Origin: an uncultured Desulfatibacillum sp.
GTDB taxonomy: Bacteria; Desulfobacterota; Desulfobacteria; Desulfobacterales; SpSt-501
Assembly (NCBI GenBank): GCA_964427375.1
Contig: CAYRUF010000020.1
Span: forward strand, 563 to 64,562
Direction of reading: 5' to 3'
Length of the DNA stretch: 64,000 nt
The notes under the pieces were generated by a model, which worked only from the letters and a program-made list of their open reading frames with translations, made no database searches and had not been told where the DNA came from. Below are positions 1-52,957 of the stretch, piece after piece. The stretch's first letter is position 1. Every line of letters begins with the position of its first letter. The translations under genes were made by a program, and so were the position numbers.

Positions 1-408
1 TTCAGCGCGAAGACTGCCTCAAATCCTCTCAACCCGACAACCGCCGCGCGGGTCTCCGGTGATGTCGTGTCCATGCCGGCGACCCATTTCGACGACGGCA
101 AGGCGCGCTACTTCGAGCACCAACACGGCGGCATCACCATCCGTTACTTCGTGGTGAAGAGCGCCGACGGAGTCCTGCGGGCGGCCTTCGATGCCTGCGA
201 CGTATGCTGGCCGGCCGGCAAGGGCTATGCCCAGGACGGCGATTTCATGGTCTGCCGGAACTGCGGCCAGCGCTTCCACTCGACCAAGGTGAACGAGGTC
301 AAGGGCGGCTGCAATCCGGCGCCGCTGGAGCGCCGCGTTGAAAACGGGATGCTGGTGATCCGGGTGGGCGACATCCTCGAAGGCAAAACCTACTTTGACC
401 TAATTTGA
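1..408 (+). CDS. DUF2318 family Fe-S-containing protein (5' partial; C-terminus altered by MITE insertion)
   Basis: Frame is open from base 1; motifs DACDVC..KGY..MVCRNCGQRF..GGCNP are typical of DUF2318; the stop TGA (406-408) lies inside the MITE end. Confidence 0.8.
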   Translation, partial: FSAKTASNPLNPTTAARVSGDVVSMPATHFDDGKARYFEHQHGGITIRYFVVKSADGVLRAAFDACDVCWPAGKGYAQDGDFMVCRNCGQRFHSTKVNEVKGGCNPAPLERRVENGMLVIRVGDILEGKTYFDLI

Positions 409-695
409 GCGATTCTCACAGTGATGGTTATGGTAAGGTCCGCCGGGGTGTTCGCCCCGCAGGGCCCGCCGCAAAAGGCTCCCAGGCTTCGTCGACGCCC
501 CAAGGGTTTCCACAATGGCTCCTCACAGGCAGCGACGGCCGAGTGGGTCGTGAGCTCTGCCGTCCGGGGCTATCCGGGCCTATCTGAGCGGCATTGCTGC
601 CGTTGAGACGGCCACCGGAAAAATTGCAGCGGACCCTGCGGGGCGAACCCCCCCGGCGGACTCCACGGTCGGGTAATCCAATCGCTCAATTCAGG
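399..695 (-). mobile_element. ~297 bp non-autonomous MITE, copy 1
   Basis: Ends CCTAATTTGAGCGATT (399-414) / AATCGCTCAATTCAGG (680-695); flanking direct repeat TTTGA (394-398, 696-700); internal IR 438-474/624-661; core similar to copies at 7.8 and 15.5 kb. Confidence 0.85.
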
Positions 696-722
696 TTTGA
701 CTTTTCCAGAAAGGCCTGAGCC

Positions 723-1880
723 ATGACGCTGAAACGAATATCCATCCGCAACCTGATGCGGCGCAAGGGCAAGGCGGCCTTCATTCTGGCCGGGCTTGTG
801 ATCGGAGTGGCCACGGTCGTCGGCATCTTCACCTTCGTGGCGGCGACCACCCACGACATCGCCCACAAGCTCGAGCAATACGGCGCCAACATCCTGATTG
901 TGCCGAAAACCGAAAACCTATCTTTGAGCTACGGCGGGCTTTCGCTGGGCGGGGTGTCCTTCGACCTCGAAGAAATCCGGGAGTCCGAGCTGGCGCGGCT
1001 GGCCACCATTCCCAACCACCGCAACATCGCCGCGGTCGGCCCCATCGTGCTGGGGGCCGCGTCCGTTGCGGACCGTCGGATGCTGATGGCCGGCGTGGAT
1101 TTCCAGGCGGCCGAAATCCTCAAACCCTGGTGGCGGGTGGACGGCCGGTTGCCTCAGGCCGACGAGGCGCTGCTGGGGGCCGAGGCCGCCCGGGCGCTTA
1201 ACCTGACAACCGGCCAGCGCCTGTCCGTGAACGGCCGCGAATTGGCCGTTTCCGGGCGGCTCGAGGCCACCGGCTCCCAGGACGATCACCTGGCGTTTCT
1301 CACCCTCGCCACGGCCCAGCAGCTCTTTGCCAAGTCCGGAAAAATCTCCATGGTCGAGGTGGCGGCCCTGTGCAAGGACTGCCCGATGGAGGACATGGTC
1401 CGGCAGATCGCGGCGGTGCTGCCCGGCGCCAAGGTCATGGCCATCCAGCAGGTGGTCAAAAGCCGCATGGAGGCCTTGGCCCAGTTCCAGAAGTTTTCCT
1501 ACGGGATATCCGCCGTCATTCTTTTCATCGGCGGCCTGGTGGTGCTGGTCACCATGATGGGCAGCGTCCGGGAGCGCACCGAAGAGATCGGCATCTTCCG
1601 GGCCGTGGGCTTCCGGCGTTCGCACATCATGCAGGTCGTTTTCCTGGAGGCCGGGATCATTTCGGCGCTGGCCGGCGTGATCGGCTACGGCCTGGGATGG
1701 GCCTCGGCGGCTGCGGCACTCGCTCTGTCCGGCGACGGCCATGCGGGGCACGTTCCCTTTGCGCCCGAGTGGGCGCTGGGAGCGGTCGCCCTGGCGCTGG
1801 TCCTGGGGCTGGCCGCCACGGTTTATCCGGCGCAGATGGCATCGCGCCTCGATCCGAACGAAGCGCTGCGGGCGCTCTAA
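723..1880 (+). CDS. ABC transporter permease, MacB/FtsX family
   Basis: N-terminal TM helix, periplasmic domain, SVRERTEEIGIFRAVG motif, C-terminal TMs and SRLDPNEALR. Confidence 0.9.
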   Translation: MTLKRISIRNLMRRKGKAAFILAGLVIGVATVVGIFTFVAATTHDIAHKLEQYGANILIVPKTENLSLSYGGLSLGGVSFDLEEIRESELARLATIPNHRNIAAVGPIVLGAASVADRRMLMAGVDFQAAEILKPWWRVDGRLPQADEALLGAEAARALNLTTGQRLSVNGRELAVSGRLEATGSQDDHLAFLTLATAQQLFAKSGKISMVEVAALCKDCPMEDMVRQIAAVLPGAKVMAIQQVVKSRMEALAQFQKFSYGISAVILFIGGLVVLVTMMGSVRERTEEIGIFRAVGFRRSHIMQVVFLEAGIISALAGVIGYGLGWASAAAALALSGDGHAGHVPFAPEWALGAVALALVLGLAATVYPAQMASRLDPNEALRAL

Positions 1881-1904
1881 CCCTCGGGTCGGAAAGGAAC
1901 GCAC

Positions 1905-2612
1905 ATGAGCTACATCGTTGCAGACCAATTGGGCAAGTCCTTCGGAAGCGGAGCGGCCGCGGTGCACGCCGTTTCCGATCTGAATTTCCGGATCGCTCCG
2001 GGCGAGTTCGTCGCGATCATGGGCGAGTCCGGCGCCGGCAAGTCGACCCTGCTGGGAATCCTCGGGGCGATGAGCGCTCCGACCACGGGACGGCTGCACG
2101 TGGACGGCATCGACGTGTACGCGCTGAATCCGGACCGGCTGGCCGATTTCCGGCGCGAGTATCTGGGGTTCGTGTTCCAGAGTTTCCACCTGGTCCCCTA
2201 TCTGTCCGTGATCGAAAACGTCATGCTGCCGCTCGCCGTGAGCCGGCAGGGCGGCTTGGAAAAGCGCCGGCGGGCAAATGAGGCGCTGGCCCAGGTCGGC
2301 CTGGACGGAAAAGCCGACCGGCTCCCCGGAGAGATCTCGGGCGGCGAAAAGGAGCGCGTGGCGGTGGCGCGGGCGATCGTGAACGAGCCGCCGGTGCTGC
2401 TGGCCGACGAGCCCACGGGAAACCTGGATTCCGGAAACAGCCGTGAAATCATGCGGATGTTCCAGCGTCTGAACGCCTCCGGCATGACCGTCATCATGGT
2501 GACCCACAGCGCGGAATGCTCCGGCTATGCCGGGCGCATCATGCAGCTGAGCGACGGCCGACTGAAGACGGACCGGCGAGCCGCCGCCGCCCCTCTGCGG
2601 CGGGCTTCGTAA
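1905..2612 (+). CDS. ABC transporter ATP-binding protein (LolD/MacB-like)
   Basis: Walker A GESGAGKST, signature ISGGEKERVA, Walker B LLADEPTGNLD, MVTH. Confidence 0.93.
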   Translation: MSYIVADQLGKSFGSGAAAVHAVSDLNFRIAPGEFVAIMGESGAGKSTLLGILGAMSAPTTGRLHVDGIDVYALNPDRLADFRREYLGFVFQSFHLVPYLSVIENVMLPLAVSRQGGLEKRRRANEALAQVGLDGKADRLPGEISGGEKERVAVARAIVNEPPVLLADEPTGNLDSGNSREIMRMFQRLNASGMTVIMVTHSAECSGYAGRIMQLSDGRLKTDRRAAAAPLRRAS

Positions 2613-2675
2613 CCGGCGGCCCGGCGGAAGGGGTCGTGGGATTCCGCCGCGGGCGGCCGACGATCGAGGCGTTGC

Positions 2676-2703
2676 TTGACACCCTCGGCGCCGATCGTAT
2701 ATT
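2676..2703 (+). promoter_or_regulatory. sigma70-like promoter of the TIM-barrel gene
   Basis: TTGACA (2676-2681) N16 TATATT (2698-2703); the ORF track's TTG start at 2676 coincides with this -35 box. Confidence 0.45.
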
Positions 2704-2768
2704 TGACCGCGACCGGGGAGCGCTCAGCCGCCGGGGAACTCCGATTCCTCAAGCACGGGGGGACAGGC

Positions 2769-3611
2769 ATGGTTTTCGGTTACAGCACCAATGCGTTCGT
2801 GAAATACCGACTGGTGGATGCGGTGGCGCGCATCGCCCGGCTGGGATTCAAGGGCGTTGAGATCATGGCCGACCGGCCGCACCTGTATCCGCCGGATGTC
2901 GACGAAGCCGAGTTCGAGCGCCTCCAGCAGGCGCTGGTGTCCGGCGGGTTGAAAGTGACCAACCTGAACAGCTTCACGCTGTTCGCCGTGGGCGACACCT
3001 ATCTGCCTTCCTGGATCGAACCGGACCGCGGCCGCCGGGAGATCCGCATCCGCCACACCCGCGACTGCCTGCGCCTGGCCCGGCGGCTGGGCTGCGCCAA
3101 CATCTCCGTGCCGCCCGGCGGGCCGCTTTCCGGCGTCACCCGGGGCGAGGCCGAGCGGCTGTTTTACGAAGGGATCGAGGAGGTCGCCGCGCTCGCCGAA
3201 GCATTGAGCGTCCGACTGTTGGTCGAGCCGGAGCCCGGCCTGATGATTGAGACCACCCGTCAGTTCCAGGAATTCATGCGAGGCGTGCGCTCCCCGGCGG
3301 TCGGGGTGAATTTCGACATCGGCCATTTTTTCTGCGCCGGGGAAGATCCGCGGGAGGCCTTCGAGACGCTTTTCGAATGGGTGGGGCACGTTCACCTGGA
3401 AGACATCGCCCCCACGCGGGTCCATCGGCATCTGATCGCCGGCCGGGGCGCCATCCGGTTCGCCGATGTCCTGACATGCATGCGGCGGCTCGGCTACGCC
3501 GGCGACATCAGCCTGGAACTCTACCCCTACGTCGATACCCCGGAGGAAGCCGGGCGGGAGAGCCGGGCCTTCCTGGAACCGATCTTCGCAGAGGCGGGCT
3601 TCGACATCTAG
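2769..3611 (+). CDS. sugar phosphate isomerase/epimerase (xylose isomerase-like TIM barrel)
   Basis: Metal-ligand motifs VEPEP, NFDIGH, HVHLED, ISLELY; ATG at 2769 follows a purine-rich RBS-like stretch. Confidence 0.85.
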   Translation: MVFGYSTNAFVKYRLVDAVARIARLGFKGVEIMADRPHLYPPDVDEAEFERLQQALVSGGLKVTNLNSFTLFAVGDTYLPSWIEPDRGRREIRIRHTRDCLRLARRLGCANISVPPGGPLSGVTRGEAERLFYEGIEEVAALAEALSVRLLVEPEPGLMIETTRQFQEFMRGVRSPAVGVNFDIGHFFCAGEDPREAFETLFEWVGHVHLEDIAPTRVHRHLIAGRGAIRFADVLTCMRRLGYAGDISLELYPYVDTPEEAGRESRAFLEPIFAEAGFDI

Positions 3612-3682
3612 TCCGACATCCAGCGCGGCTCCCCGGATGAACGGTATGGCGGCGCAGGCAGCCGAGCGGCCGGTCCCGTCCG

Positions 3683-4591
3683 TCAGGCCCTGCTGCTGTG
3701 GCTGCTGACGGTCAGCACCGGGCAAGGCGAACGCCGCACCACCCGGTCGGTGGTTGAGCCCATCAGCAGGGATTCTATCAGGCCGTACCCCCGCACCCCC
3801 ATGACGATCATGTCCATGTTTTGGGCCACGGAATAGGCGACCAGCTCCTCGTGAGGCTGGCCGCGCAGGACGACCACCTGCAGGGAGCACCAGTTGCGGG
3901 CTTCCGGCGGCACCAGCTCTTCCAGTTTCGCCTTAAAGACATCGGTGTGAACCATGTCCTGGGCTTGTTCGGCGGGCGACATGAATTCGCGGTAGGCGGG
4001 CGGCTCGCTCACATGAATGAGGTGCAGTTCGGCCTCGAATTCCTGGGCCAGGCTGAGCCCGTAGTTCAAGCTGAGCACCGAGTCCGTCGAGAAGTCGCAG
4101 CCGACCAGAATTTTCTTCAGCCGGATGCCGGCGGCGTCCTTGCCGATGAAACCCTCCTCGGGGCTTTGCACGGCGAGCAGGGGACAGCTCAGGGTCCGCA
4201 TCAGGCGCTGGGTCACCGACCCCAGGATCAGCCGCTTCAGGCCGGAGTGGCCGCGAGTGGAGGTGATGACGAGATCGACGCCCTTTTCTTCGACCAGGCG
4301 GGCGATTTCGGCAGCCGGCTGGCCGACCGCGATCAACGGCTCCCACGTGACCCGATCGAGCCCCGGTATTTTGGGCAGATGGGCCTGGGCCTCCTGCTGG
4401 ATGCGCACCTGCTGGCCGATGGGGTCCAGCTGGAACTCGCCGTAGATCGTAACTGCCGACAAGTCGATGACGTGGCACACATAAAGCTTGGCGTCGAACT
4501 CCCGCGCGATCGCGACCCCATACGGAATGGTGCGGTTGGAATAATCCGAAAAATCGGTGGCGCAGATGATGCTCCGGAAATTCATTCTCAT
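3683..4591 (-). CDS. universal stress protein (tandem USP domains)
   Basis: Two IxxATDFS/VGCDFS starts and two G..G..LILGSVT/LMGSTT..L..CP motifs. Confidence 0.92.
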   Translation of the reverse strand: MRMNFRSIICATDFSDYSNRTIPYGVAIAREFDAKLYVCHVIDLSAVTIYGEFQLDPIGQQVRIQQEAQAHLPKIPGLDRVTWEPLIAVGQPAAEIARLVEEKGVDLVITSTRGHSGLKRLILGSVTQRLMRTLSCPLLAVQSPEEGFIGKDAAGIRLKKILVGCDFSTDSVLSLNYGLSLAQEFEAELHLIHVSEPPAYREFMSPAEQAQDMVHTDVFKAKLEELVPPEARNWCSLQVVVLRGQPHEELVAYSVAQNMDMIVMGVRGYGLIESLLMGSTTDRVVRRSPCPVLTVSSHSSRA

Positions 4592-4621
4592 ACGACACCT
4601 CCTTTTTTGAGGGACGAACGT

Positions 4622-6073
4622 TTATCCCTTTATGACCGCCAGCGGCGCCAGCCGGGCCACGCGCCGGGCCAGGCCGGCTCCGTGGACGACCTCAACGACC
4701 CGATCGACATCCTTGTAGGCCGCCGGCGCCTCCTCGGCCAGGCCGGCCATGCTGCCCGCGCGCACCCGGATGCCGCCGGCTTCGAGATCCCGGCGCAGGG
4801 CCGGTCCCTGCACGGAGCGCTTGGCTTGGTGCCGGCTCATGGTGCGGCCCGCGCCGTGGCAGCTGGAGCCGAACGTCTGGGACATGCCGCTTTCGGTTCC
4901 GACCAGCACCCAGCTGGAGGTGCCCATCGAGCCGGGGACCAGCACCGGCTGCCCGATGCCCCGGTAGACCGGCGGCAGCACGTCCGATCCGGGCCCGAAG
5001 GCCCGCGTGGCGCCCTTGCGATGCACGCACAGCGCGGCCGTCCGTTCTCCCACCGGATGGGATTCCACCTTGGCCATGTTGTGGGCGATATCGTAAATTT
5101 GAAAGAGGTGGTAACGTTTCAGTTTTCCGGCCAGCACCTGTTCGAACGAGCGTCGGATGTGATGGGCCAGCACCTGGCGGTTGGCAAATGCATAATTGGC
5201 GGCGGCTTTCATGGCGGCGAGGTAGTCCCGGCCCTCCGGGCTGCTCAGCGGCGCACAGACCAGTTCGCGGTCGGGCAGATCGATGCCGTATTGGCGGACG
5301 GCTTTCTGGAAGAGGTTGACATAGTCGGTGCAGACCTGATGCCCGAGGCCCCGTGATCCGCAATGGATCTGGACGACCACCTGCCCGGCGAAGAGGCCGA
5401 ATTGCCGGGCGACGGCTTCGTCCGCGATCCGATCGACCACGTCCACTTCGATGAAATGGTTGCCGGCCCCCAGCGTGCCGATCTGGCCCTTGCCGCGGTC
5501 GCGGGCGCGGGCGCTGACCTTTTCCGCATCGGCGCCGGGCAGGCAGCCCTCCTCCTCGGTGCGTTCGAGGTCGGCGGCGCTTCCAAACCCGCGCTGGACG
5601 GCCCACCGCGCGCCTTTTTCCATGACCTGGTCCAATTCGCCGGCGGCCAGTTTCACGGCACCGCCCTTGCCGACGCCGCTGGGGCAGTTGGCGTACAGCA
5701 TCGTCGCCAGGTCGTCCAGGTGAGGCCGAACGGCTTCAACGTCCAGTTGGCTGGCCAGCAGGCGGACCCCGCAGTTGATGTCGTAGCCCACCCCGCCCGG
5801 AGAGATCACCCCGTCCGGCAGGGCCGTAGCCACCACGCCGCCGATGGGAAACCCGTAGCCCTGGTGCATGTCCGGCATGGCCAGGACCTGGTTGACGACG
5901 CCCGGCAGCGTGGCGGTGTTGACCAGCTGCTCCAGGCTGCGGTCGCCGAGCACGTTTTCGATCAGGGCCTCGTCGGCATAAAACCGGGCCGGCACGCGCA
6001 TGTCCGGCCGAAATGACGACGGGATTTCATAGAGGTAGGTGTCGATTCTGCGTAGATCGCGGATGCGCACCAT
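4622..6073 (-). CDS. rtcB: RtcB family RNA ligase
   Basis: [62 protein letters not shown]; ATG at 6073 with AGGA RBS. Confidence 0.95.
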
Positions 6074-6104
6074 GGGGTCCTCCTGAGCGCCGAGGAGCGG
6101 CGGG

Positions 6105-6518
6105 TCACACATCGAAGACCACGGTCACCACCAGACCTTCCGGATGGCGGCCGATGGCCAGATGGTGAAAGGTGACGGCCTTGACGTGCTTGTCCAATGC
6201 CTGGACCGGGGCGCCGCGGACGACCGCCTTGAGCCGGACGGGGGACAACTCGATGAAGTCGACCTGGTCGAAAATCAGGGATTCGGTTTCCGCCCAGAAG
6301 GCCAACTCGCTCAGCCAGGCCACCAGCAGGCTTTCCGCATCGGCCGCCTCCAATTCGATGCGTTTGGCGACGCTGCCGGCACCCCCGGAGCCTCCCGTCC
6401 GCATCAGGCTGTTCATGCCCGCCGCGGCGTTCCCAAACAGCTCGGCCAGATTCCGGCCGTATATGCGCAGCGCCCGGTCTGCGGTGTGGTCGACTTCTTC
6501 GAACCGTATGGGCACCAT
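6105..6518 (-). CDS. archease
   Basis: [26 protein letters not shown]-terminal VVFDV; immediately upstream of rtcB. Confidence 0.92.
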
Positions 6519-6610
6519 GACTCCCGCGGGCGCTGATGGTTTGAGGTGCGTGCCCGTCCGCACCGGCACGGGAGGTGAATGAAGGCCGAAGCAGTTGGGC
6601 GGCTATAGCA

Positions 6611-6651
6611 GGGGATGATTCAGTATGTAATGAGCATCCCCCGGATGTCAA
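6611..6651 (-). promoter_or_regulatory. sigma70-like promoter with overlapping inverted repeat, archease-rtcB-usp
   Basis: Minus-strand TTGACA (6651-6646) followed by TACATA/CATACT; IR GGGGATGATTCA..TGAGCATCCCC (6611-6641). Confidence 0.45.
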
Positions 6652-6697
6652 GCATTCCAACGGGCGACGATCCGGCGCGTCCTGCGCTCAAAATGAC

Positions 6698-6727
6698 TTT
6701 ACAGGCTTCGGGCGGCTTGCCTATAAT
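6698..6727 (+). promoter_or_regulatory. sigma70 promoter of the oxidoreductase gene
   Basis: TTTACA N18 TATAAT. Confidence 0.55.
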
Positions 6728-6773
6728 CACTGATCCGTTTTCCCCTTTTGGATTAAGGCAAGGAGGCCATCCG

Positions 6774-7802
6774 ATGAAAGCCATTTTTTTCGAAACCCAT
6801 GGAGAAATCGACGTTCTGCGTTATGGCCAGGTGCCCGATCCGACTCCGGCGGCCGGTCAGGTGGTGGTGCGGGTCCGGGCCTGCGCCCTGAATTTCCTGG
6901 ATATCTGGGTGCGGCGTGGCTGGCCGGGGCTGAAGCTTGAAATGCCGCACTGGTGCGGCGCGGACGTGGCCGGCGAGGTCGCCGCACTGGGCCCGGGCGT
7001 GTCCGGCTGGGCCGTGGGGCAGCGGGTGGTCGTCGATCCCGGGATCAACCGGTTCGAAGACGAGTTCACCCGGCGCGGCGCGGCGTCGATCAGCCCCGGA
7101 TACAGCGTCCTGGGCGAGCATGTGCGCGGCGGAGCCGCCGAGTACGTGGCGGTGCCGGCCGCCAACCTGGCTGCGATGCCCGAGGGGCTGGACTTTCCCG
7201 CCGCGGCCGCTCCGCTGCTGGTCGGCCTGACGGCCTGGCGCATGCTGATCCACCGCGCCGGTCTTCGCCCGGCGGAAACGGTGCTGGTGGTGGGCGCCGG
7301 CGGCGGAGTGAACAGCATGGCGATCCAGGTCGCCAAGCTCGCCGGGGCCACGGTGTGGGTCGTGGCCGACGGTGCGGAAAAGTCCGCCAAGGCCGTCCGG
7401 CTGGGCGCCGACCGGGTCATCGACCGCTCCCAAACGGACTGGGTCCGGGAGGTCCTAACGGCGACCGGCCGGCGCGGGGTCGACGTGGTGGTGGACAACG
7501 TCGGGCGGGCCACATTGGCCGGCAGCATGCAGGCGGTGGCGCGCGGCGGCCGCATCGTGATCGTGGGAAACACCAGCGGGCCCAAGGCCGAGATCGACAT
7601 CCGCTTCATCTTCGGCAAGCAGATCAGCCTCATCGGCAGCACCATGGGCAGCCACCAGGATTTTCTCACCGTGACGGGCCTGCTCTGGAAGGGCAGGCTT
7701 GAACCGGTGATCGATCGGGTGTTCCCGCTGAGCGAGGGGATCGAGGCCTATCGGCGGATGGAGGCGGGGGGGCATTTCGGCAAGATCCTGCTGCAGCCAT
7801 AA
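6774..7802 (+). CDS. zinc-binding dehydrogenase / quinone oxidoreductase (MDR family)
   Basis: VRACALNFLD, CGADVAGEV, VLVVGAGGGV, GSTMG; AAGGAGG RBS before ATG 6774. Confidence 0.9.
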   Translation: MKAIFFETHGEIDVLRYGQVPDPTPAAGQVVVRVRACALNFLDIWVRRGWPGLKLEMPHWCGADVAGEVAALGPGVSGWAVGQRVVVDPGINRFEDEFTRRGAASISPGYSVLGEHVRGGAAEYVAVPAANLAAMPEGLDFPAAAAPLLVGLTAWRMLIHRAGLRPAETVLVVGAGGGVNSMAIQVAKLAGATVWVVADGAEKSAKAVRLGADRVIDRSQTDWVREVLTATGRRGVDVVVDNVGRATLAGSMQAVARGGRIVIVGNTSGPKAEIDIRFIFGKQISLIGSTMGSHQDFLTVTGLLWKGRLEPVIDRVFPLSEGIEAYRRMEAGGHFGKILLQP

Positions 7803-7812
7803 CAAATTGCAA

Positions 7813-8107
7813 CCCAAATTGAGCGATTTTATCAGCTGACAGCGGAGCCCGTCGGGGTATGCGCCCCGCCGGGCCGCCGCAAAAGACGCCCAGGCTTCGT
7901 CAACGCCCCCGGGGTTTCTCCCATGGCTCCGCACCGGCAGCGACGGCCGAGTCGGCCGTGAGCGCTGCCGTCCGGGGCTATCTGGGCCTATCTGAGCGGG
8001 ATGGCTGCCGTCGAGAGACGGCTACTGAAAAATTGCGGCGGTCCGGCGGGGCGCATACCCCGACGGGCCTTCCCCTAACAATCCGTGTAAGAATCGCTCA
8101 AACTGTA
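7813..8107 (+). mobile_element. ~295 bp MITE, copy 2 (core in opposite orientation)
   Basis: CCCAAATTGAGCGATT (7813-7828) and AATCGCTCAA (8092-8101); flanks TGCAA/TGAAA; internal IR 7847-7882/8033-8068 with 35/36 match. Confidence 0.85.
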
Positions 8108-8132
8108 TGAAAGAAAAGCAGCGCGACAGGCC

Positions 8133-9278
8133 CTATCGATAGCGCTTGATAACCTCGCGGAAGATGATGAGCTTCTGGACGTCCTGGGTGCCTTCGCCGA
8201 GCGAAGATCCCCAGGCGTCCATCGGGAACTTGTGGATGGGATGCTCGAACATGACCGATGCGGCGCCGAAGATGTCCGCAGCCCAGGCCGTGGTCTTGCG
8301 GGCGGCCGCAACCGCGAGCAGCTTTGCGATCGAGGCCTGCTCGCGGAAGTCTGCGCCGCGGTCGACCGTCCAGCAGGCTCTCCAGAGCGCCAGGCGGGCG
8401 GCCTCGATTTCGGCATGCCGCTCGGCGATTTCAAACGACTTGGCCTGATGGTCGGCGATCCGCTGGCCGAAGGCGGTGCGCGTGACGGCGCGCTTCACGG
8501 CCAGGTCGAAGGCGCCGGCGGCGGTGCCGAGCGTCAGGGCCGAGATCGCTAACCGGCTGTGGGTGAAGATTTGCAGCACCTGCGCCAGCCCGTGGCCCTG
8601 TCGGCCGAGCAGGTGGTCGGCCGGCACCGCCACGTCCTTCAACTCCAGCCGCGTCAGGTCCGACGGCAGCCAGACCTGTTTGTTCAAACGGGTGCGCCGG
8701 ACTCCGGGCTGATGGAGATCGACCAGAAACATCGAAAGTCGGCGAGCCCGAGTGGCGGCCGGGTCGGTGACGGCCGTGATCACGGCCAGGTCGGCGACGC
8801 TGCCGTTGGTGACGTAGGATTTCGCGCCGGTGAGCCTCCAGCCGTCTGGCGCGGCGTCGGCCTGCATGGCAACGGCCGCCACGTCGCTTCCAGCGTGGCC
8901 TTCGGTGTTGCCGAGGCCCATGATCGATTCCCCCTTCAGGGCCTTTTCCGCATAGCGGCGCTGAAGCTGCCGCGAACCGAAAAGAAAAAGGCCCATCAGG
9001 CCGAGGTCGGCGTGCGCGAGCGCTGCAATCGCCGCGCCCGGCGAACGCCGGGCCAGTTCCTCCGCGAAGAGAGCTTCCCGCAGGGCCGAACGCTTTACGA
9101 GGCCACTTTCTGACCATTCGAATCCGTACCCGCCCGATCGGCCCAGCTCCTCAAAAAATTCCCTCGGAAGGTCTCGGCGGCGGTACCAGTCGTTCAACCG
9201 CGTTTGGAAGCCGCTGTTCAAAAAATCTTTGAATTGGCTGAATTCAATAAGCAATTCTTCCGGAAGGGCGAAGTCCAT
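8133..9278 (-). CDS. acyl-CoA dehydrogenase family protein
   Basis: GNTEGHAGSDVAA, LTGAKSYVTNG, RTAFGQRIADHQ, SLGEGTQDVQKLII. Confidence 0.9.
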   Translation of the reverse strand: MDFALPEELLIEFSQFKDFLNSGFQTRLNDWYRRRDLPREFFEELGRSGGYGFEWSESGLVKRSALREALFAEELARRSPGAAIAALAHADLGLMGLFLFGSRQLQRRYAEKALKGESIMGLGNTEGHAGSDVAAVAMQADAAPDGWRLTGAKSYVTNGSVADLAVITAVTDPAATRARRLSMFLVDLHQPGVRRTRLNKQVWLPSDLTRLELKDVAVPADHLLGRQGHGLAQVLQIFTHSRLAISALTLGTAAGAFDLAVKRAVTRTAFGQRIADHQAKSFEIAERHAEIEAARLALWRACWTVDRGADFREQASIAKLLAVAAARKTTAWAADIFGAASVMFEHPIHKFPMDAWGSSLGEGTQDVQKLIIFREVIKRYR

Positions 9279-9568
9279 TTTTTTATCCTTGCGGATGCGA
9301 CGCGGCTGTCATTCTCTCGGGAGATGATTTTACGAAACCATACGCCATTTGAGGTTTTATCAATTTATTTTTTAAAAATACGCCTTTTGGATTTAAATGA
9401 CAAGATAATATGAATGCCATTTTTTATTTTGATATCGATATTGCAATTTGGGTTGGCTTTATGCTAACCATAAAGCAGGCTATCTCTTGAGCATGGTTCC
9501 AGCAGCGTGCTGTGGGCTTATGATATCTCCTCCGATGACCGCGAACGGCAGGCGAAAGAGAGGGCGCC

Positions 9569-9799
9569 ATGAAGGAGCTGATCGAATACATAGCCAAATC
9601 TCTGGTGGATTATCCGGAGCAGGTAAGCGTCAACGTGCTGGAAGGCAGTCAGGCGACCGTGCTGGAGCTGAACGTGGCCAAGATGGACTTGGGCAAAGTG
9701 ATCGGGAAGCAGGGCCGGACGGCCAAGGCCATCCGAACCATCCTTGGCGCGGCCTCCGCCAAAAACAAGAAACGCGCCGTGCTTGAAATCGTGGAGTGA
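9569..9799 (+). CDS. khpA: KH domain RNA-binding protein KhpA
   Basis: [35 protein letters not shown]. Confidence 0.92.
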
Positions 9800-9808
9800 C
9801 GCCCTGCC

Positions 9809-9841
9809 GGGGGTGCCTGGATTTACACCCCCTCGTTTTTA
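9809..9841 (+). terminator. rho-independent terminator after khpA
   Basis: GGGGGTG..CACCCCC stem followed by a T tract. Confidence 0.55.
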
Positions 9842-9914
9842 CAACCACCTTCCTTGCGGCGGCAGGCGCCATGAGAAGCCTTCCTTTCCTGGATTTCCTC
9901 AACAACGGGCACCC

Positions 9915-9943
9915 TTGACGCGATTTGATCGCGTCGCATATTT
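9915..9943 (+). promoter_or_regulatory. promoter with palindromic operator, pdh operon
   Basis: TTGACG -35 overlapped by perfect IR GACGCGAT-TTG-ATCGCGTC (9917-9935), AT-rich -10 region after it. Confidence 0.5.
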
Positions 9944-10007
9944 TCCCAAACCAGTCCGGACGCAACCAACACAGCTGCACCCGAATCCTTAACCAAGGAT
10001 GGTTTCG

Positions 10008-11114
10008 ATGCCGAAGACGCGAATCGCCTTGCCCGACTCACTGGATTACCTTTCCATTCTCGATGAACACGGGGTGCTGGACCCGGATCTCGAACCGGCC
10101 CTCGACGATTCCCTGCTCTTGAAACTGCATCGGACGATGCTTCTGGCGCGCCGGTTCGATGAGCGGCTGCTGAGCCTGCAGCGCCAGGGCCGGATCGGGA
10201 CGTTTCCGCCGATCGCCGGCCAGGAGGCCGCGCACCTGGGGGCGGTCGCCGCCTTGCGGGCCTCCGACTGGGTGGTTCCGGCATTCCGCGAAATGGCGGC
10301 CGATCTCTGGCGCGGCCGTTCCCTGGAGAGCATCATCATTTACAACAACGGTTTCAACGAAGGCAGCCGGATTCCCGCCGAGCGCAACGACATGCCCATC
10401 TCCGTGCCCGTTGGCTCCCAAATCCTGCACGCCGTCGGCATTGCCTGGGGCATGCAGTACCGCGGCACGGACGACGTCGCGATGACCTTTTTCGGCGACG
10501 GTGCGACCTCCCAGGGCGACTTCCACGAGGGGCTCAACTTTGCCGGCGTGTTCCAGCTGCCGGCGGTGTTCGTCTGCCAGAACAACCAGTGGGCCATTTC
10601 GATTCCGCGCTCCAAGCAGACCCGCTCAAAAACCCTGGCCCAAAAGGCGTTTGCATACGGGATCCCGGGAATTCAGGTGGACGGCAACGATATTCTCGCG
10701 GTTTACGCCGCCGCCCGGGAGGCGGTCGAGCGGGCCCGGTCCGGGGGCGGGGCCACCCTGATCGAGTGCGTCACCTACCGCATGGCCGTGCACACCACGG
10801 CGGACGATCCCAAGCGCTACCGGTCGGACGCCGAAGTGGAGGAATGGCGCCGCAGGGACCCGCTCACCCGCTTCCAGGGATATCTCTCGGCCAAGGGCCT
10901 CTTGACCGCGGATGCCGTCAAGGACGAGGAAGAGCGGGTCGCCGCCGAGATTCAAGCGGCGGTGGAGCGTGCCGAAGCAGAGATGAAGTCTCTGGGGGAC
11001 CCGTTGCCGATGTTCGAACACGCCTACGCCGAAATGCCCGAATACCTCAGCGAGCAGCGCGCGGATTTCATCCGGTTCATCGGTTCGATCGAGAAGGAGG
11101 GGGACCATGCCTAA
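10008..11114 (+). CDS. pdhA: pyruvate/2-oxoacid dehydrogenase E1 alpha
   Basis: LQRQGRIG, TPP motif FFGDGATSQGDFHEGLN, QNNQWAIS, YRMAVHTTADDP. Confidence 0.93.
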   Translation: MPKTRIALPDSLDYLSILDEHGVLDPDLEPALDDSLLLKLHRTMLLARRFDERLLSLQRQGRIGTFPPIAGQEAAHLGAVAALRASDWVVPAFREMAADLWRGRSLESIIIYNNGFNEGSRIPAERNDMPISVPVGSQILHAVGIAWGMQYRGTDDVAMTFFGDGATSQGDFHEGLNFAGVFQLPAVFVCQNNQWAISIPRSKQTRSKTLAQKAFAYGIPGIQVDGNDILAVYAAAREAVERARSGGGATLIECVTYRMAVHTTADDPKRYRSDAEVEEWRRRDPLTRFQGYLSAKGLLTADAVKDEEERVAAEIQAAVERAEAEMKSLGDPLPMFEHAYAEMPEYLSEQRADFIRFIGSIEKEGDHA

Positions 11115-12093
11115 GATGACCATGGTGCAGGCCCTGAATTTGGCCCTGCGCCAGGAGATGGCCCGGGACGACCGCGTCATCGTCCTGGGCGAGGACGTGG
11201 GGGTGGACGGCGGCGTCTTCCGCGTGACCGACGGCCTGATCGAAGCCTTTGGGGAACGCCGCGTGGTGGACACGCCGCTGGCGGAATCCGCCATCGCCGG
11301 CATGTCCATCGGCATGGCCGTCTACGGGCTGAAACCGGTCTGCGAGATGCAGTTCGATGGGTTCAGCTACTACACCATGCACCAGATCGAAGCCCACGCC
11401 TCCCGCCTGCGCTGGCGCTCCCAGGGGCGCTACCATGTGCCGATGGTCCTGCGGGCGCCCTACGGCGGCGGCGTGCGCGCCCTGGAACATCATTCCGAGA
11501 GCCGCGAGGTCTTTTGGGCCCACATCCCGGGCCTCAAGATGGTGATCCCCTCGGGTCCGCGCAACGCCCGGGCGCTTCTGGTCAGCGCCATCCGAGACCC
11601 GGACCCCGTCATCTTCTATGAACCCAAGGCCGTCTACCGCGCCTTCCGCGAAGACGTGCCCGAGGAGGAAGAAACGCTGCCCATCGGACGCTCCCGGCGG
11701 GTGCGGGAGGGCCGCGACCTCACGCTGATCGCCTACGGCGCCATGATGCGGCCGACCCTGGAAGCGGCCGACGCGCTGCAGCGCCAGCACGGTGTGGAGG
11801 CCGACGTGATCGATCTGCTGACGATTTCGCCGCTGGACGACTCGCTCCTGGTGGAGTCCGCCCGCAGGACCGGGCGGGTGGCCGTCGTGCACGAGGCGCC
11901 GCGCAGTTTCGGACCGGGGGCCGAAGTGGTGGCCCGGCTGGTGGAAAAGGCGTTTTATCACCTCGAGGCGCCGGTGGCGCGGGTGACCGGCTACGATGTC
12001 CTCATCCCCTTGTTCAGCCGCGAAAAATACTACCTGCCCGATGCGGCCCGCATCGTCGACGCGGCCCGCACCCTGCTGGCGGCGCAATCATAG
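11107..12093 (+). CDS. pdhB: 2-oxoacid dehydrogenase E1 beta
   Basis: GEDVGVDGGVFRVT, DTPLAES, EHHSES, FYEPK. Confidence 0.93.
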   Translation: MPKMTMVQALNLALRQEMARDDRVIVLGEDVGVDGGVFRVTDGLIEAFGERRVVDTPLAESAIAGMSIGMAVYGLKPVCEMQFDGFSYYTMHQIEAHASRLRWRSQGRYHVPMVLRAPYGGGVRALEHHSESREVFWAHIPGLKMVIPSGPRNARALLVSAIRDPDPVIFYEPKAVYRAFREDVPEEEETLPIGRSRRVREGRDLTLIAYGAMMRPTLEAADALQRQHGVEADVIDLLTISPLDDSLLVESARRTGRVAVVHEAPRSFGPGAEVVARLVEKAFYHLEAPVARVTGYDVLIPLFSREKYYLPDAARIVDAARTLLAAQS

Positions 12094-12102
12094 GAGGCGA
12101 AC

Positions 12103-13392
12103 ATGGCCAAGGCGTTCAAGCTCCCGGACCTGGGTGAGGGCATCCACGAAGGGGAGGTGCTGGCCGTGCGGGTCAGCGCCGGACAGGCCGTCAAGGAAGG
12201 CGACGTCATCCTGGAGGTCGAGACCGACAAGGCCGCGGTCGAAATCCCCTCGCCGTACACCGGCACGGTTTTGGAGATACTCGTCAAGCCCGGCGACACG
12301 GTTCGGGTCGGCCAGGTGCTGATGACCTTCTCGGAAGCCGGGGAAAAACCCGAGGCGCTTCCCGCACCGGCTGCGCGGCCTCCCCAAGCGGCGGCCGGCC
12401 CGGAGCCGGTCGGCGCGCCGCCGGCTGCCGGTCCGCGCCAGGGACCGGTTCCGGCTTCGCCGGCGACCCGCCGTCTGGCTCGGGAGCTGGGCGTGGACCT
12501 GACGCAGGTGCCGCCCAGCGGTGCAGCGGGTCTGGTCACCGCCGATGACGTGCGTGCGTTCGCTGCGGCCGGCCCGACCTCGAAAACGCCGGCGGCTGCA
12601 CCCGCGGCGCCGGCCGCGGAACAACCCGCCCGCCCCCCCGTTCCGCCCTCGGAGCTGCCTGATTTTTCCAAGTGGGGTGCGGTGGAACGAGTGCCGTTCC
12701 GCTCCATCCGCCGGGCCACGGCCAGGCAGATGAGCCTGGCCTGGGAGCAAATACCCCATGTCAACAGCCAGGACTACGTGGACGTGACGCGGCTCGAAGC
12801 CTTCCGGCGCAAGCACAAGCGCGATGTTGAAGCGCTCGGCGGGCGCCTGACGGTCACCGTTTTCGCGCTCAAGGCCGTGGCGACGGCCTTGAAGGCCCAT
12901 CCGCGGATCAACGCCAGCCTGGACACGGCGGCCGGCGAAATCGTGCTGAAAAAGCACTATCACATCGGCGTGGCCGTCAACACCGAGGAGGGGCTCGTCG
13001 TTCCGGTGGTGCGCGACGTCGACAACAAGAGCATCAAAGAGCTCGCGGTCGAGCTCAACGCCCTCGTGCAGCGGGCCCATGCCCGCAAGATCGCCCTGGA
13101 AGAATTCCAGGGCGGAACCTTTACCATCACCAATGCCGGCGCGCTGGGGGGCTGGACGTTTGCGCCGATCATCAACTATCCGCAGGTGGCGATCCTCGGG
13201 CTTGGGCAGGGACGGCTCCAGCCGGCGGTCGTCAAGCGGGAGAGCGGCCTGGCGATCGCCGCCCGGCTGATCATGCCGGCGGTGCTGTGCATCGACCACC
13301 GCGTGCTGGACGGGGCTGATGCCGTGAACTTCCTGAAGCTCTTCAAACAGATCATGGAAGATCCGGACGAGCTGCTGATGTCCGTTGTTTGA
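12103..13392 (+). CDS. pdhC: dihydrolipoamide acyltransferase E2
   Basis: Lipoyl motif VETDKA, Ala/Pro linker, E3-binding ASPATRRLARELG, catalytic DHRVLDG. Confidence 0.93.
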   Translation: MAKAFKLPDLGEGIHEGEVLAVRVSAGQAVKEGDVILEVETDKAAVEIPSPYTGTVLEILVKPGDTVRVGQVLMTFSEAGEKPEALPAPAARPPQAAAGPEPVGAPPAAGPRQGPVPASPATRRLARELGVDLTQVPPSGAAGLVTADDVRAFAAAGPTSKTPAAAPAAPAAEQPARPPVPPSELPDFSKWGAVERVPFRSIRRATARQMSLAWEQIPHVNSQDYVDVTRLEAFRRKHKRDVEALGGRLTVTVFALKAVATALKAHPRINASLDTAAGEIVLKKHYHIGVAVNTEEGLVVPVVRDVDNKSIKELAVELNALVQRAHARKIALEEFQGGTFTITNAGALGGWTFAPIINYPQVAILGLGQGRLQPAVVKRESGLAIAARLIMPAVLCIDHRVLDGADAVNFLKLFKQIMEDPDELLMSVV

Positions 13393-13430
13393 CAACCAGC
13401 GAGCGCGGGCTTCCAATTGGAGGTGCACCA

Positions 13431-14852
13431 ATGGTGATGGGCGAACTGGCGCAGGAGACCGAGCTGCTGGTGATCGGCAGCGGACCGGGCGGCTATGCCG
13501 CGGCGTTTCGTGCGGCCGACCTCGGCATGGACGTGAGCCTGGTGGACCCGGCGCCGCGGCCGGGCGGGGTCTGCCTCTACAAAGGGTGCATCCCCTCCAA
13601 GACCTTTCTCTTCCTGGCCGAGCTCATCTTCGACGCCGAGCGGGCCGGCGCCATGGGAATCTCCTTCGGTCCTCCCCAGATCGACCTGGCCGGCCTGCGG
13701 CGCTGGAAGGCCGAGGTGATCGAGAAGATGGCGGGCGGTTTGATGAGCCTCGCCAAACGCCGGGGAGTGCAGCTCATCAACGGCCGCGCCGAATTCGAGT
13801 CCTCGGAAAGCGTGCGGGTGCACGACGCCGATATCAGCCGCATCCGCTTCCGGCACGCGATTATCGCCACCGGATCGAAGCCGATCCCGTTTCCGGGAAC
13901 CGATTTTGCGGCCGGCCGCCGGATCATGAGCTCCACCGGGGCTCTGGCGCTTGCCGATGTGCCGGAATCCCTGCTCGTTCTGGGGGGCGGCTATGTGGGC
14001 TTGGAGCTGGGGACCGTCTATGCCGCGCTCGGCAGCCGCGTCAGCGTCGTCGAACGGCAGGATCGCCTCCTGCCGGGGGTCGATCCGGACCTGGTCAATC
14101 CGCTGCAGCGGCGGTTGCAATCCATCTTCGCCGACATCCGGCTGAACACCCGCGTCCAGCAGCTGCGGGAGGAGGAGGGCGGCGTCACGGTGCAGTTGGA
14201 AGGAGACGGCGCTCCTTCCGAACAGCGCTTCGAGCGGGTGCTGGTGGCCATCGGGCGCAAGCCGGCGACCCAGGGGTTGGGCCTAGAGCATACGCGCGTT
14301 CAGGTGGATGCGAAGGGCTTCATCCGCGTGGACGAACAACGCCGCACGAACGATGCGCGCATTTTCGCCGTCGGGGACGCCGTGGGCGGCATGATGCTCG
14401 CCCACAAAGCGAGCTACGAGGGCAAGGTGGCGGCCGAGGCCATCGCCGGCCAGCCTTCGGCATTTGATGTGCGGGCGATTCCGGCCGTGGTCTACACCGA
14501 TCCCCAGATCGCCTGGTGCGGGCTTACCGAGGAGCAGGCGCGGCAGGAGCGCATCCCCGTCCAGGTGCAGCGTTTTCCATGGAAGTTCTCCGGGCGGGCG
14601 ACCACCATGGGGGCTTCCGAAGGCCTCACCAAAATTCTGGCCGATCCCGCATCCGGCCGGATCCTGGGCGTGGGGATCGCCGGCCGGAACACGGAGGGCT
14701 TGATCTCAGAGGGGGTCCTGGCCATCGAAATGGGAGCCCTGGCCGAGGACGTCGCCGCCACGATGCACCCGCATCCGACGCTCTCGGAGACGGAATCCGA
14801 GGCGGCCGAGATGTTCCTGGGTCGGGCGACGCATATCATCGGGAAACGTTAA
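13431..14852 (+). CDS. lpdA: dihydrolipoyl dehydrogenase E3
   Basis: GSGPGGY, GGVCLYKGCIPSK redox disulfide, MLAHKA, HPHPTLSE; GGAGG RBS before ATG 13431. Confidence 0.95.
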   Translation: MVMGELAQETELLVIGSGPGGYAAAFRAADLGMDVSLVDPAPRPGGVCLYKGCIPSKTFLFLAELIFDAERAGAMGISFGPPQIDLAGLRRWKAEVIEKMAGGLMSLAKRRGVQLINGRAEFESSESVRVHDADISRIRFRHAIIATGSKPIPFPGTDFAAGRRIMSSTGALALADVPESLLVLGGGYVGLELGTVYAALGSRVSVVERQDRLLPGVDPDLVNPLQRRLQSIFADIRLNTRVQQLREEEGGVTVQLEGDGAPSEQRFERVLVAIGRKPATQGLGLEHTRVQVDAKGFIRVDEQRRTNDARIFAVGDAVGGMMLAHKASYEGKVAAEAIAGQPSAFDVRAIPAVVYTDPQIAWCGLTEEQARQERIPVQVQRFPWKFSGRATTMGASEGLTKILADPASGRILGVGIAGRNTEGLISEGVLAIEMGALAEDVAATMHPHPTLSETESEAAEMFLGRATHIIGKR

Positions 14853-14987
14853 AAGCTGAAAGATAAGAGCCGAAAGGCTTTTGGGGATTCATGGAACTTC
14901 GGGCCGTGAACCGCTCGCAGCGCCGCCATTCAGACAGCGAGCCTAATCTTTTGCGTTGAGCTTTGAGCTTGCCGCTTTGAGCTTTTC
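14850..14987. repeat. inverted pair of heptamer tandem arrays (T[G/C]AAAGC)
   Basis: Plus: TAAAAGC TGAAAGA TAAGAGC CGAAAGG; minus: GAAAAGC TCAAAGC GGCAAGC TCAAAGC TCAACGC. Confidence 0.55.
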
Positions 14988-15449
14988 CGCCCAGTCCGCG
15001 GGCATCTGAACGGCAACGACGTCTCCACGGGCACAGACCACGCCCTTGGCGGACAGTCGGATATCGAGCATCACCTTGCGGCCCTGGATTTCCCGAACCC
15101 GCGCCCGCAGCTCCAGTTCCGCATCGATGGGCGTCGGCGCGAGATAATCCACGTGCAGCGAGCCGGTGACGAAACGCACCGGCGGTTCGGTCCCCAGCTC
15201 CCGTCCCTCCTGCCGGTATTTGGCGGCCGCGGCGGTACCGGTGGCGTGGCAATCGATGAGCGAGGCGATCAAGCCGCCATATACATAGCCCGGAATCGCC
15301 GTATGGTAGGGCCGCGGCCGAAAGCGGCACACACTCTCCTCCCCGTCCCAATGGCTTTTGATCTGAAGGCCGTGCGGGTTCAAGCGGCCGCATCCATAGC
15401 AGTGGCTCACGTCGTCCGGATAATAATCCTGAAAGGCTTTCGAGGCCAT
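14943..15449 (-). CDS. PaaI/hotdog-fold thioesterase
   Basis: CYGCGRLNPHGL, VYGGLIASLIDCH, VTGSLHVDYLAPTP. Confidence 0.88.
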   Translation of the reverse strand: MASKAFQDYYPDDVSHCYGCGRLNPHGLQIKSHWDGEESVCRFRPRPYHTAIPGYVYGGLIASLIDCHATGTAAAAKYRQEGRELGTEPPVRFVTGSLHVDYLAPTPIDAELELRARVREIQGRKVMLDIRLSAKGVVCARGDVVAVQMPADWAEKLKAASSKLNAKD

Positions 15450-15466
15450 CGATTTCCCTTCTGATA

Positions 15467-15759
15467 CCCAAATTGAGCGATTTTATTGCCTGACAGCGGA
15501 GTCCGCAGGCGTGTGCGCCCCGCCGGACCGCCGCAATTTTTCAGTAGCCGTCTCGACGGCAGCCATTCCGCTCAGATAGGCCCAGACAGCCCCGGACGGT
15601 AGAGCCCACGACCCATTCGGCCGGCACTGCCTGTAAGGAGCTATGGGAGAAACCCCGGGGGCGTTGACGAAGCCTGGGCGTCTTTTGCGGCGGTCCGGCG
15701 GGGCGCACACCCCTGCGGACCTTCCCATGACAATAAATGCGATAATCCCTCAAACGATG
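15467..15759 (+). mobile_element. ~293 bp MITE, copy 3
   Basis: CCCAAATTGAGCGATT (15467-15482) and AATCCCTCAA (15744-15753); perfect TSD TGATA (15462-15466, 15760-15764); internal IR 15501-15536/15685-15720 with 35/36 match. Confidence 0.87.
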
Positions 15760-15805
15760 TGATAGAGAACCCATCGCTGGGACGAGACGGGTGCGACCGC
15801 CGACC

Positions 15806-15837
15806 AAAAGGCCGGGGGGCCTCATCCCCGCCGGCCT
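15806..15837 (-). terminator. rho-independent terminator of the dodecin gene
   Basis: Minus strand AGGCCGGCGGGG-ATGAGG-CCCCCCGGCCT followed by TTT. Confidence 0.55.
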
Positions 15838-15874
15838 CGATTCCCCCGGCGGCAGCACCGCGGACACATCCGAA

Positions 15875-16090
15875 TCAATCTTCCTTCTGGTACTTGAAGG
15901 AGAGGCTCACCCGCGCCCGGTAGGCGGTCGCCTTGCCATTCTCGATCTTCAGGTCGAGTTTGGTGATTTCCGCTACGCGCAGATCTCTGAGGCTTTTGGA
16001 GGCGGTTTCCACGGCATTTTTGGCCGCATCCTCCCATGACTTGGTGCTGGTGCCAATCAGCTCGATGACTTTGTAGATGCTCTCGGCCAT
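15875..16090 (-). CDS. dodecin family protein
   Basis: YKVIELIGTS..SWEDAAKNAV..A..LRDLRVAE, VSLSFK; GGAGGA RBS. Confidence 0.92.
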   Translation of the reverse strand: MAESIYKVIELIGTSTKSWEDAAKNAVETASKSLRDLRVAEITKLDLKIENGKATAYRARVSLSFKYQKED

Positions 16091-16217
16091 AACATCCTCC
16101 TTTCTGATGATCACAGGTGATCGCCGCATCGGGGGCGGCCGGGGACGATCCCCGGTCCCTCCGGGGGGGAGAATCGATACCACCGGCGTTAGCCAACCGC
16201 TGAAATGGGTCTTAACA

Positions 16218-19428: not shown

Positions 19429-19506
19429 CCGCCGGCGCCGACCCGCGGCGCGGCCGCCATGATCCGCGCGGCTGCAGCGGACGGCGTTCGAATCCTGGAG
19501 GAACCC

Positions 19507-46526: not shown

Positions 46527-46601
46527 GGGATGAGGACTGAGGACTGAGTCTAAAAACCGTCAGAGGCTGGGGAACATTTTCGCTCAGCCCTCAGTCCTCA
46601 G
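46519..46601. repeat. inverted pair of heptamer tandem arrays (AGGACTG)
   Basis: AGGACTG AGGGATG AGGACTG AGGACTG (46519-46546) facing CTCAGCCCTCAGTCCTCAG (46583-46601). Confidence 0.7.
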
Positions 46602-46612
46602 AACTGACTGAC

Positions 46613-48022: not shown

Positions 48023-48031
48023 GAAGCCGAG

Positions 48032-49111: not shown

Positions 49112-49117
49112 CACGGC

Positions 49118-49193
49118 ATGCGACCCGTCCGCCCGAACCCGGCATCCGACGACCGCCCTCCTCCGGTGCCGGGCGGCGCGGACGGGGCCGCAT
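49118..49193. repeat. long GC-rich intergenic hairpin between mraY and murD
   Basis: ATGCG-ACCCGTCCGC..CCCGGCA/TGCCGGG..GCGGACGGGG-CCGCAT nested inverted repeat. Confidence 0.5.
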
Positions 49194-49214
49194 CGCCGCC
49201 GTAAGGACGTCGGC

Positions 49215-50618: not shown

Positions 50619-50621
50619 CCG

Positions 50622-52942: not shown

Positions 52943-52957
52943 CGGACGAACGACACC

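Follow-up and report, generated by a model that had tools for sequence, protein, structure and literature searches.

Among described systems, those closest to the element reported here are the insertion sequences (IS) of the IS1380 family, the Correia elements of Neisseria, the TIMEs and, for its internal structure, quasipalindromes. The IS1380-family member ISEcp1 generates 5-bp target duplications, repeatedly TATGA (PMC2887853), and transposases of this family are known to act on degenerate alternative right ends (PMC9330008). Correia elements are reported to invert in place, according to work cited in PMC10969869, and in quasipalindromes template switching brings imperfect inverted repeats closer to perfect complementarity (PMC7202029). 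Here, we analyzed 64,000 nucleotides from an uncultured Desulfatibacillum sp. (assembly GCA_964427375.1, contig CAYRUF010000020.1, positions 563 to 64,562 of the forward strand), a stretch that we refer to as the window. Within 16 kb it contains three copies of a repeat of about 295 bp, all of them outside genes or at the extreme edge of a gene. We show that these repeats are copies of a non-coding miniature inverted-repeat transposable element (MITE), which inserts at AT-rich 5'-TNNNA-3' sites and duplicates 5 bp there. The best overall explanation, which we hold to be highly likely, is a MITE moved most probably by an IS1380-type transposase, in which exchange between two internal arms inverts the core and for which nothing indicates a host function.

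Direct reading of the window agreed with the coordinates, lengths, ends and flanking 5-mers that an initial annotation had given for the three copies. Copy 1 (399–695, 297 bp, − strand) has the ends CCTAATTTGAGCGATT ... AATCGCTCAATTCAGG and is flanked by TTTGA on both sides (394–398 and 696–700). Copy 2 (7813–8107, 295 bp, + strand) has the ends CCCAAATTGAGCGATT ... AATCGCTCAAACTGTA and is flanked by TGCAA (7808–7812) and TGAAA (8108–8112), which differ by one substitution, while copy 3 (15467–15759, 293 bp, + strand) has the ends CCCAAATTGAGCGATT ... AATCCCTCAAACGATG and lies between two TGATA 5-mers (15462–15466 and 15760–15764). The 5-bp duplication is hence perfect in two of the three copies. 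A 32-nt core pattern matched exactly these three copies in the window, with 0 matches expected (100 shuffles), and no further copy was found between 16 and 64 kb. At 293–297 bp, with indels between copies and neither a transposase nor a conserved open reading frame (ORF), the element is well within the size usual for MITEs, which is under about 600–800 bp. Both of its ends carry a 16-bp terminal inverted repeat (TIR), CCYRAWTTGAGCGATT, which in copy 1 corresponds to CCTAATTTGAGCGATT on the B side (399–414, + strand) and to CCTGAATTGAGCGATT on the A-like side (680–695, − strand). All six window ends contain the decamer TTGAGCGATT, as do most metagenome copies. The ends had been described initially as 16-bp repeats starting with CC; the 16-bp repeats stand, but CC opens only four of the six window tips, as it does most metagenome ends. 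Both tips of copy 1 start with CC; on the right, copies 2 and 3 have degenerate tips, reading (reverse-complemented) TACAG in place of CCTAA and CATCG, respectively.

That the element has moved is seen at its empty sites. Related loci were gathered by a genome-collection search with the neighboring acyl-CoA dehydrogenase, which placed the window host among uncultured Desulfobacterales-type metagenome-assembled genomes (MAGs), the nearest showing 87–89% amino acid identity and flanks of about 89–91% nucleotide identity. The element was present in none of 80 related genome loci. When compared at base level, the site of copy 1 reads ...TACTT(T/C)GAC(T)TTTCC... in six related MAGs (L051, L053, L055, L057, L058 and L066), as the window would without the element and one of its two TTTGA duplicates, so that the empty site has a single TTTGA. 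For copy 2, an empty site was found in L050 only, CAAATTGAAAAAAAAC, with a single TGAAA, and the left duplicate in the window has mutated to TGCAA after insertion. At the site of copy 3, L051 is collinear but diverged and lacks the element, with a length difference that fits 293 + 5 bp, and a related wetland strain reads through the site (loose end at 15461), which represents an empty allele. The initial annotation had proposed comparing empty sites in related genomes, and for copies 1 and 2 related MAGs indeed show clean sites with one 5-mer. In the mechanism that we propose, a DDE transposase encoded elsewhere would cut the element at its 16-bp TIRs.

The same element occurs in metagenomes. 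A scan with a 23-nt core pattern yielded 46 contigs (L004–L049), and blastn with the cores brought the total to 53 copies including those in the window, the other 50 lying in 266 kb of metagenome loci. Both ends are readable in 24 copies; 9 of these display a perfect 5-bp duplication and 5 more a match at 4/5 positions which, together with the single 5-mers at empty sites, bears out the family with 5-bp duplications that had been predicted. A target logo built from 59 distinct ends shows T at position 1 (42/59) and A at position 5 (39/59) around an A/T-rich interior, preceded by T, T/A and A at positions −9, −8 and −7. The target is thus T-N-N-N-A in an AT-rich, roughly palindromic context, in a host with 60–65% GC. 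The narrower T-N-A-W-A preference put forward initially does not survive this comparison, with only 5 of 10 perfect duplications fitting it. The host of the 50 metagenome copies is another Desulfobacterales-like organism: the named proteins nearest to its transketolase come from Desulfobacterales and deltaproteobacterial MAGs.

A high genomic copy number had also been anticipated, and the depth of metagenome contigs agrees with it. We summed word depth over contigs with a similarity of 85% or more to copy 2, which provides an estimate rather than a count. In a first freshwater metagenome, the summed depth was 1300–3200 over the element and 40–55 in the flanks, and in a second it was 170–430 and 6–8, respectively. 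That the same ratio of about 30–60 is seen at a 7-fold different abundance of the host argues for the copies belonging to the genome of the window host, and suggests that it carries roughly 30–60 of them. In line with a repeat that interrupts assembly, 26 of the 46 metagenome matches fall no farther than about 300 bp from a contig end, and contigs of the window strain from JGI and Logan end inside copy 1. The element is a frequent break point of short-read assemblies of these organisms, and masking or recognizing it should help the assembly and annotation of MAGs.

The element has a five-part layout consisting of a 16-bp TIR, a subterminal segment, an internal repeat arm, a core of about 150 bp that is bounded by the arms, and a mirror arm followed by the other subterminal segment and the second TIR. 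Two-orientation alignment and a repeat search distinguished two subterminal types, A (about 19 nt) and B (about 24 nt). The initial annotation had mentioned neither the internal inverted repeat of 36 bp nor the inversion of the copy 2 core with respect to copies 1 and 3. The arms are 97% complementary in copy 2 (36 nt at 7847–7882 with 8033–8068; pair I14) and in copy 3 (15501–15536 with 15685–15720; pair I15), and 90% complementary over 30 nt in copy 1 (445–474 with 624–653; pair I19). The whole element folds as a single long hairpin (z = −11.8 and −9.9 versus shuffles). On the + strand, copy 1 reads B end, core (475–622, ~150 bp, + strand) and A-like end. Copy 3 reads A end, core (15537–15684, − strand) and B end, which is the same internal arrangement, whereas copy 2, with A end, core (7883–8032, + strand) and B end, is flipped. 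Copies 2 and 3 thus have the same A/B end order on the + strand but cores that are mutual reverse complements (D3 and D6 versus I5, the latter with 89% complementarity between the copy 2 core and 15551–15718).

This inversion recurs in the family. Of the 24 two-ended copies, 16 are arranged as B-core-A, 4 as A-core-B, and 4 have two ends of one type (AA or BB); about 20% of copies carry the core in inverted orientation with respect to their ends. Since the nearest relative of every flipped copy by core sequence is an unflipped copy, at least three flips are needed in the metagenome subfamily plus one in the window, which makes at least four independent flips. Perfect duplications are retained in the flipped copies L011 (TGAAA) and L022 (TATGA). 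Matching duplications are absent from AA and BB copies, as would be expected because exchange between different copies would give that result. Furthermore, in a pair of metagenome copies (L031:856–1153 and L049:1260–1557) the cores are 0.7% different and the right flank is shared while the left flanks and B ends do not match, as recombination between copies may have produced. A single "opposite strands" joint (15518/15703) was seen among metagenome contigs, and it can derive from another copy.

The two arms have also changed in concert. Both sides were altered in 13 of 35 arm pairs, several of the changes being confined to single copies, a figure that was reached in 0/500 shuffles and compares with at most 4 in slid controls. 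In the window itself, the outer arm differs among the three copies (CCGCCGGGG, CCCGTCGGGG and TCCGCAGGGG), and within each copy the partner arm matches. These findings show that cores have been inverted repeatedly and that the two arms of a copy co-vary. A within-copy exchange between the arms, whether through recombination or through template switching as the hairpin replicates, would invert the core in place, and the same process would keep the two arms complementary; template switching of the quasipalindrome type would explain why the arms co-vary. We infer that arm exchange is the simplest reading of both flip and homogenization. Inversion of the loop during quasipalindrome correction would be our own extension of that mechanism, beyond what is described in PMC7202029.

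The ends of the element point to its probable mobilizer. The family ends read CCTAAnTTGAGCGATT or CCYRRMTTGAGCGATT. In plasmid records, ISEcp1 on pC15-1a has the ends CCTAGATTCTACGT and CCTAAATTCCACGT (tips CCTAGATT / CCTAAATT) and the flank TCATA, IS1678 has CCTGAATAATTCATAC at both ends (tip CCTGAAT) and ISPme1 has CCCACATTCTCC and CCGACATTCCCC (tip CCCACATT). The commonest MITE tip, CCTAAATT, agrees with the right end of ISEcp1 at 8/8 bases, and another, CCTGAAT, with the IS1678 end at 7/7. More generally, the MITE tips CCTAAATT, CCTAACTT, CCTGAATT and CCCAAATT all fit the CC-N3-ATT motif common to the IS1380-family ends compared. Positions 9–16 of the MITE end (GAGCGATT) are unrelated to every IS1380 end compared. 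The duplication length of 5 bp is within the 4–5 bp characteristic of IS1380-family elements, and the TATGA duplication of L022 is the same as that of ISEcp1. From end sequence, duplication length and target type, the parent transposase is probably an ISEcp1-like member of the IS1380 family. Use of degenerate right ends, as in that family, would suit a promiscuous mobilizer of several MITE families sharing one TIR. The IS1380 connection suggested initially is thus plausible in view of the end sequences and the 5-bp duplication, which are circumstantial evidence; the searches turned up no full-length IS that has such ends.

The three insertions have different neighboring genes. Copy 1 lies in the last codons of an FtrD-like gene (67–408), whose relatives end in ...YFDFSRKA* while the window version ends in ...YFDLI*; the insertion replaced the five final codons (FSRKA to LI), with a new stop TGA (406–408) supplied by the TIR. 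It also places a 297-nt hairpin between the FtrD-like gene and the FtsX/ABC transporter genes of an operon. Copy 2 is found between convergent genes encoding an alcohol dehydrogenase (stop at 7800–7802) and an acyl-CoA dehydrogenase (8133–9278, − strand). Copy 3 is in the 5' leader of a 4HBT thioesterase gene (14943–15449, − strand), 17 nt upstream of its ATG, and downstream of a dodecin gene (15875–16183, − strand) and its terminator-like hairpin (15830–15813, − strand). Since copy 3 sits between this terminator-like hairpin and the thioesterase ribosome-binding region, a thioesterase transcript from an upstream promoter must cross a 293-nt hairpin. Nothing indicates a host function for the element, and any effects on neighbors (the new stop codon and the hairpins in an operon and in a 5' leader) are side effects.

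Several observations weigh against a MITE of IS1380 parentage present at high copy number. CC is absent from two of the six window tips, and flanks match at no more than 3/5 positions in 10 of the 24 two-ended copies, for which decay, a 1-nt uncertainty in end position or recombination between copies (yielding chimeras) are putative causes. The copy number rests on word depth in metagenome contigs, not on a closed genome. No transposase gene bounded by MITE ends was found in the window, the 46 metagenome loci, the 80 related genome loci or viral contigs, and among 5.8 billion proteins a profile search recovered nothing beyond ISEcp1-like and IS1678-like ones, close relatives of the seeds. A search of all loci for TIR pairs 1–3 kb apart gave only L036, where 1.9 kb enclose DUF72-like and LexA genes but no transposase. 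The initial statement that the window lacks a transposase agrees with tblastn searches with the transposases of ISEcp1, IS1678, ISPme1 and IS1247, which gave no match in the window and 129 loci, a small sample of host DNA. The element might accordingly be mobilized by a different family: IS1634, a Tn3-type enzyme as for TIMEs, or an undescribed clade. IS1634 is listed with 5–6-bp duplications in the ISfinder family table. No IS1380-type gene was found across some 1.5 Mb of sequence from the host and its relatives, the IS1380 assignment rests on 8 terminal bases plus duplication length, and TIMEs too make 5–6-bp duplications in AT-rich targets (PMC4133298). However, TIMEs have 38-bp Tn3-type inverted repeats (IRs) (PMC4133298), unlike CCTAAATTGAGCGATT, and for any other family the identity of the terminal 8-mer to the ISEcp1 right end, the recurrence of CC-N3-ATT in four IS1380-family members and perfect duplications that are always 5 bp and never 6 would be hard to accommodate. 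We therefore regard a mobilizer from outside the IS1380 family as unlikely, though it deserves some weight.

Two further explanations concern the nature of the repeat itself. It could be a non-transposon repeat, such as REP/BIME-like extragenic palindromes, or an assembly artifact, and its strong palindromic structure and intergenic location are what such repeats would display; yet it is inserted precisely, with 5-bp duplications, and the empty sites refute this explanation. Independent assemblies from several metagenomes place the same copies at the same sites, and the TIR is common to other small elements that also have duplications, which reduces the chance of either version to almost nil. 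Alternatively, the core could be a functional module, encoding a small RNA or acting as an inverton, a switch that controls neighbors by its orientation. The element folds far better than shuffles, two core orientations exist, copies are found in an operon and in a 5' leader, and Correia elements are reported (PMC10969869) to invert and to carry promoters. Against a functional core, Rfam gave 0 matches at gathering score in the window, and an E-value-threshold search likewise yielded nothing real, with only sub-threshold matches of hairpin type such as MIR1437 (44.6 bits versus a threshold of 168). Compensatory change was seen in 0/29 predicted core pairs, no better than in shuffles, and orientation is independent of flanking gene direction (21 vs. 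18 and 19 vs. 19). The core is no better conserved than the arms (74% vs. 81% identity between subfamilies), its apparently invariant 23-nt block being the search pattern itself and hence an ascertainment effect, and no sigma-70-like promoter was found in or around copy 3. A functional core is accordingly very improbable. Only slightly less so is a more elaborate version, in which the core and 36-bp repeat would form an actively flipping two-state module at dozens of loci, perhaps modulating the FtrD-like/ABC transporter operon and the thioesterase leader via its orientation or a transcript hairpin, with a mover that might belong to a transposase clade not yet recognized as IS1380. We therefore retain the MITE, with its probable IS1380 parentage and arm exchange, as our interpretation.

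Other candidates for the parent were considered and set aside. IS1380 relatives in viral contigs have ends that differ from those of the MITE, exact TIR matches in viral contigs are due to chance, including one that falls among phage structural genes, and ORFs adjoining solo TIRs in related MAGs are not transposases. As for L036 (1–2177), the DUF72-like and LexA genes lie between an A half-element that begins at 235 and a B half-element that ends at 2177, with a start 5 bp from another full copy; this structure may be a rearrangement or composite-like.

Derivatives and shorter relatives accompany the full-length copies. A 102-bp deletion derivative (L015:8567–8668) consists of A, one arm and B and has a TATCA duplication. 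Unrelated short elements with the same TIR occur in other Desulfobacterales and Syntrophobacter MAGs, including one of 208 bp (L113:20818–21025) with an unrelated interior and a perfect TTTCA duplication. More such elements with unrelated interiors were noted in Desulfobacterales MAGs (L084, about 15690–15899, about 210 bp; L069, about 15282–15396, 115 bp; L064:3543–3593, 51 bp). In an uncultured Syntrophobacter chromosome (OY762941.1, L103:20656–21137), a TIR-like CCTGATTTGAGCGATT is followed by repeated units GGCAACACTCGTTT..GGGACATGGGTAACAC, and there is no transposase ORF within the 480 nt examined. A second small repeat, of about 145–190 bp, is nested in element copies or replaces the core (L015:2316–2757, L017 upstream of the core at 8786–8896, L013:6425–6725 and L047:5423–5724). 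The 23-nt core pattern had 0 matches in 185,579 species-representative genomes and 0 in viral contigs, which means that the family is absent or unassembled there. No match was found in a plasmid collection in distant mode, and literature searches on the TIR, on IS1380 MITEs and on MITEs in Desulfobacterales yielded no description of the family. This MITE family has apparently not been described before.

The window has other repeats as well. Two full-length Lon protease paralogs lie in inverted orientation (19459–21897, + strand, and 33487–35844, − strand) and share about 75–78% DNA identity, which accounts for the inverted-repeat pairs I1–I4 and I7–I9. Four Mur-ligase genes of a cell-wall/division (dcw) cluster are found at 45100–53600. 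Repeat family D1 is not a mobile repeat but the ATP-binding motif common to these four genes.

Taken together, this work provides a clearly delimited MITE that has apparently escaped description until now, from uncultured Desulfobacterales (bacteria of the sulfate-reducer type) living in wetlands and freshwater sediments, together with a consensus, a target logo, subfamilies and derivatives. It would count among the few documented candidates for an IS1380-derived MITE, with no mention of IS1380 in a 2024 review of MITEs, and it offers a natural data set for repeated loop inversion and arm homogenization in a long quasipalindrome. It is a clean and fresh example of an ordinary kind of element, which leaves general concepts unchanged.

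How does this MITE compare with known systems? With the IS1380 family (ISEcp1, IS1678 and ISPme1/IS1247) it shares the CC start, the CC-N3-ATT motif, 5-bp duplications in AT-rich T...A targets and the tolerance of degenerate right ends. It differs in being 295 bp long without a transposase gene, when the ISs are 1.6–2 kb, and in its hosts, which are uncultured Desulfobacterales rather than the enterobacteria, Firmicutes and alphaproteobacteria from which the compared ISs come. Like TIMEs, it is non-autonomous and duplicates 5 bp (5–6 bp in TIMEs) of AT-rich DNA, but its 16-bp CC-initiated IRs, as opposed to 38-bp Tn3-type IRs, set it apart from that group (PMC4133298). Quasipalindrome hotspots are known from reporter genes and organelle spacers, whereas ours is a case of sequence comparison in a mobile element. 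Correia elements (CREE/NEMIS) are likewise high-copy, hairpin-forming MITEs that are mostly intergenic, often co-transcribed and found with end variants in all combinations, and in both a long double-stranded stem would be a substrate for RNase III. Correia elements duplicate TA, have TIRs of about 26 bp and are not known to share sequence similarity with the Desulfobacterales MITE, whose 5-bp TNNNA duplication places it outside the Correia family. Their inversion also differs from the one described here, which is bounded not by the TIRs but by a separate internal 36-bp repeat.

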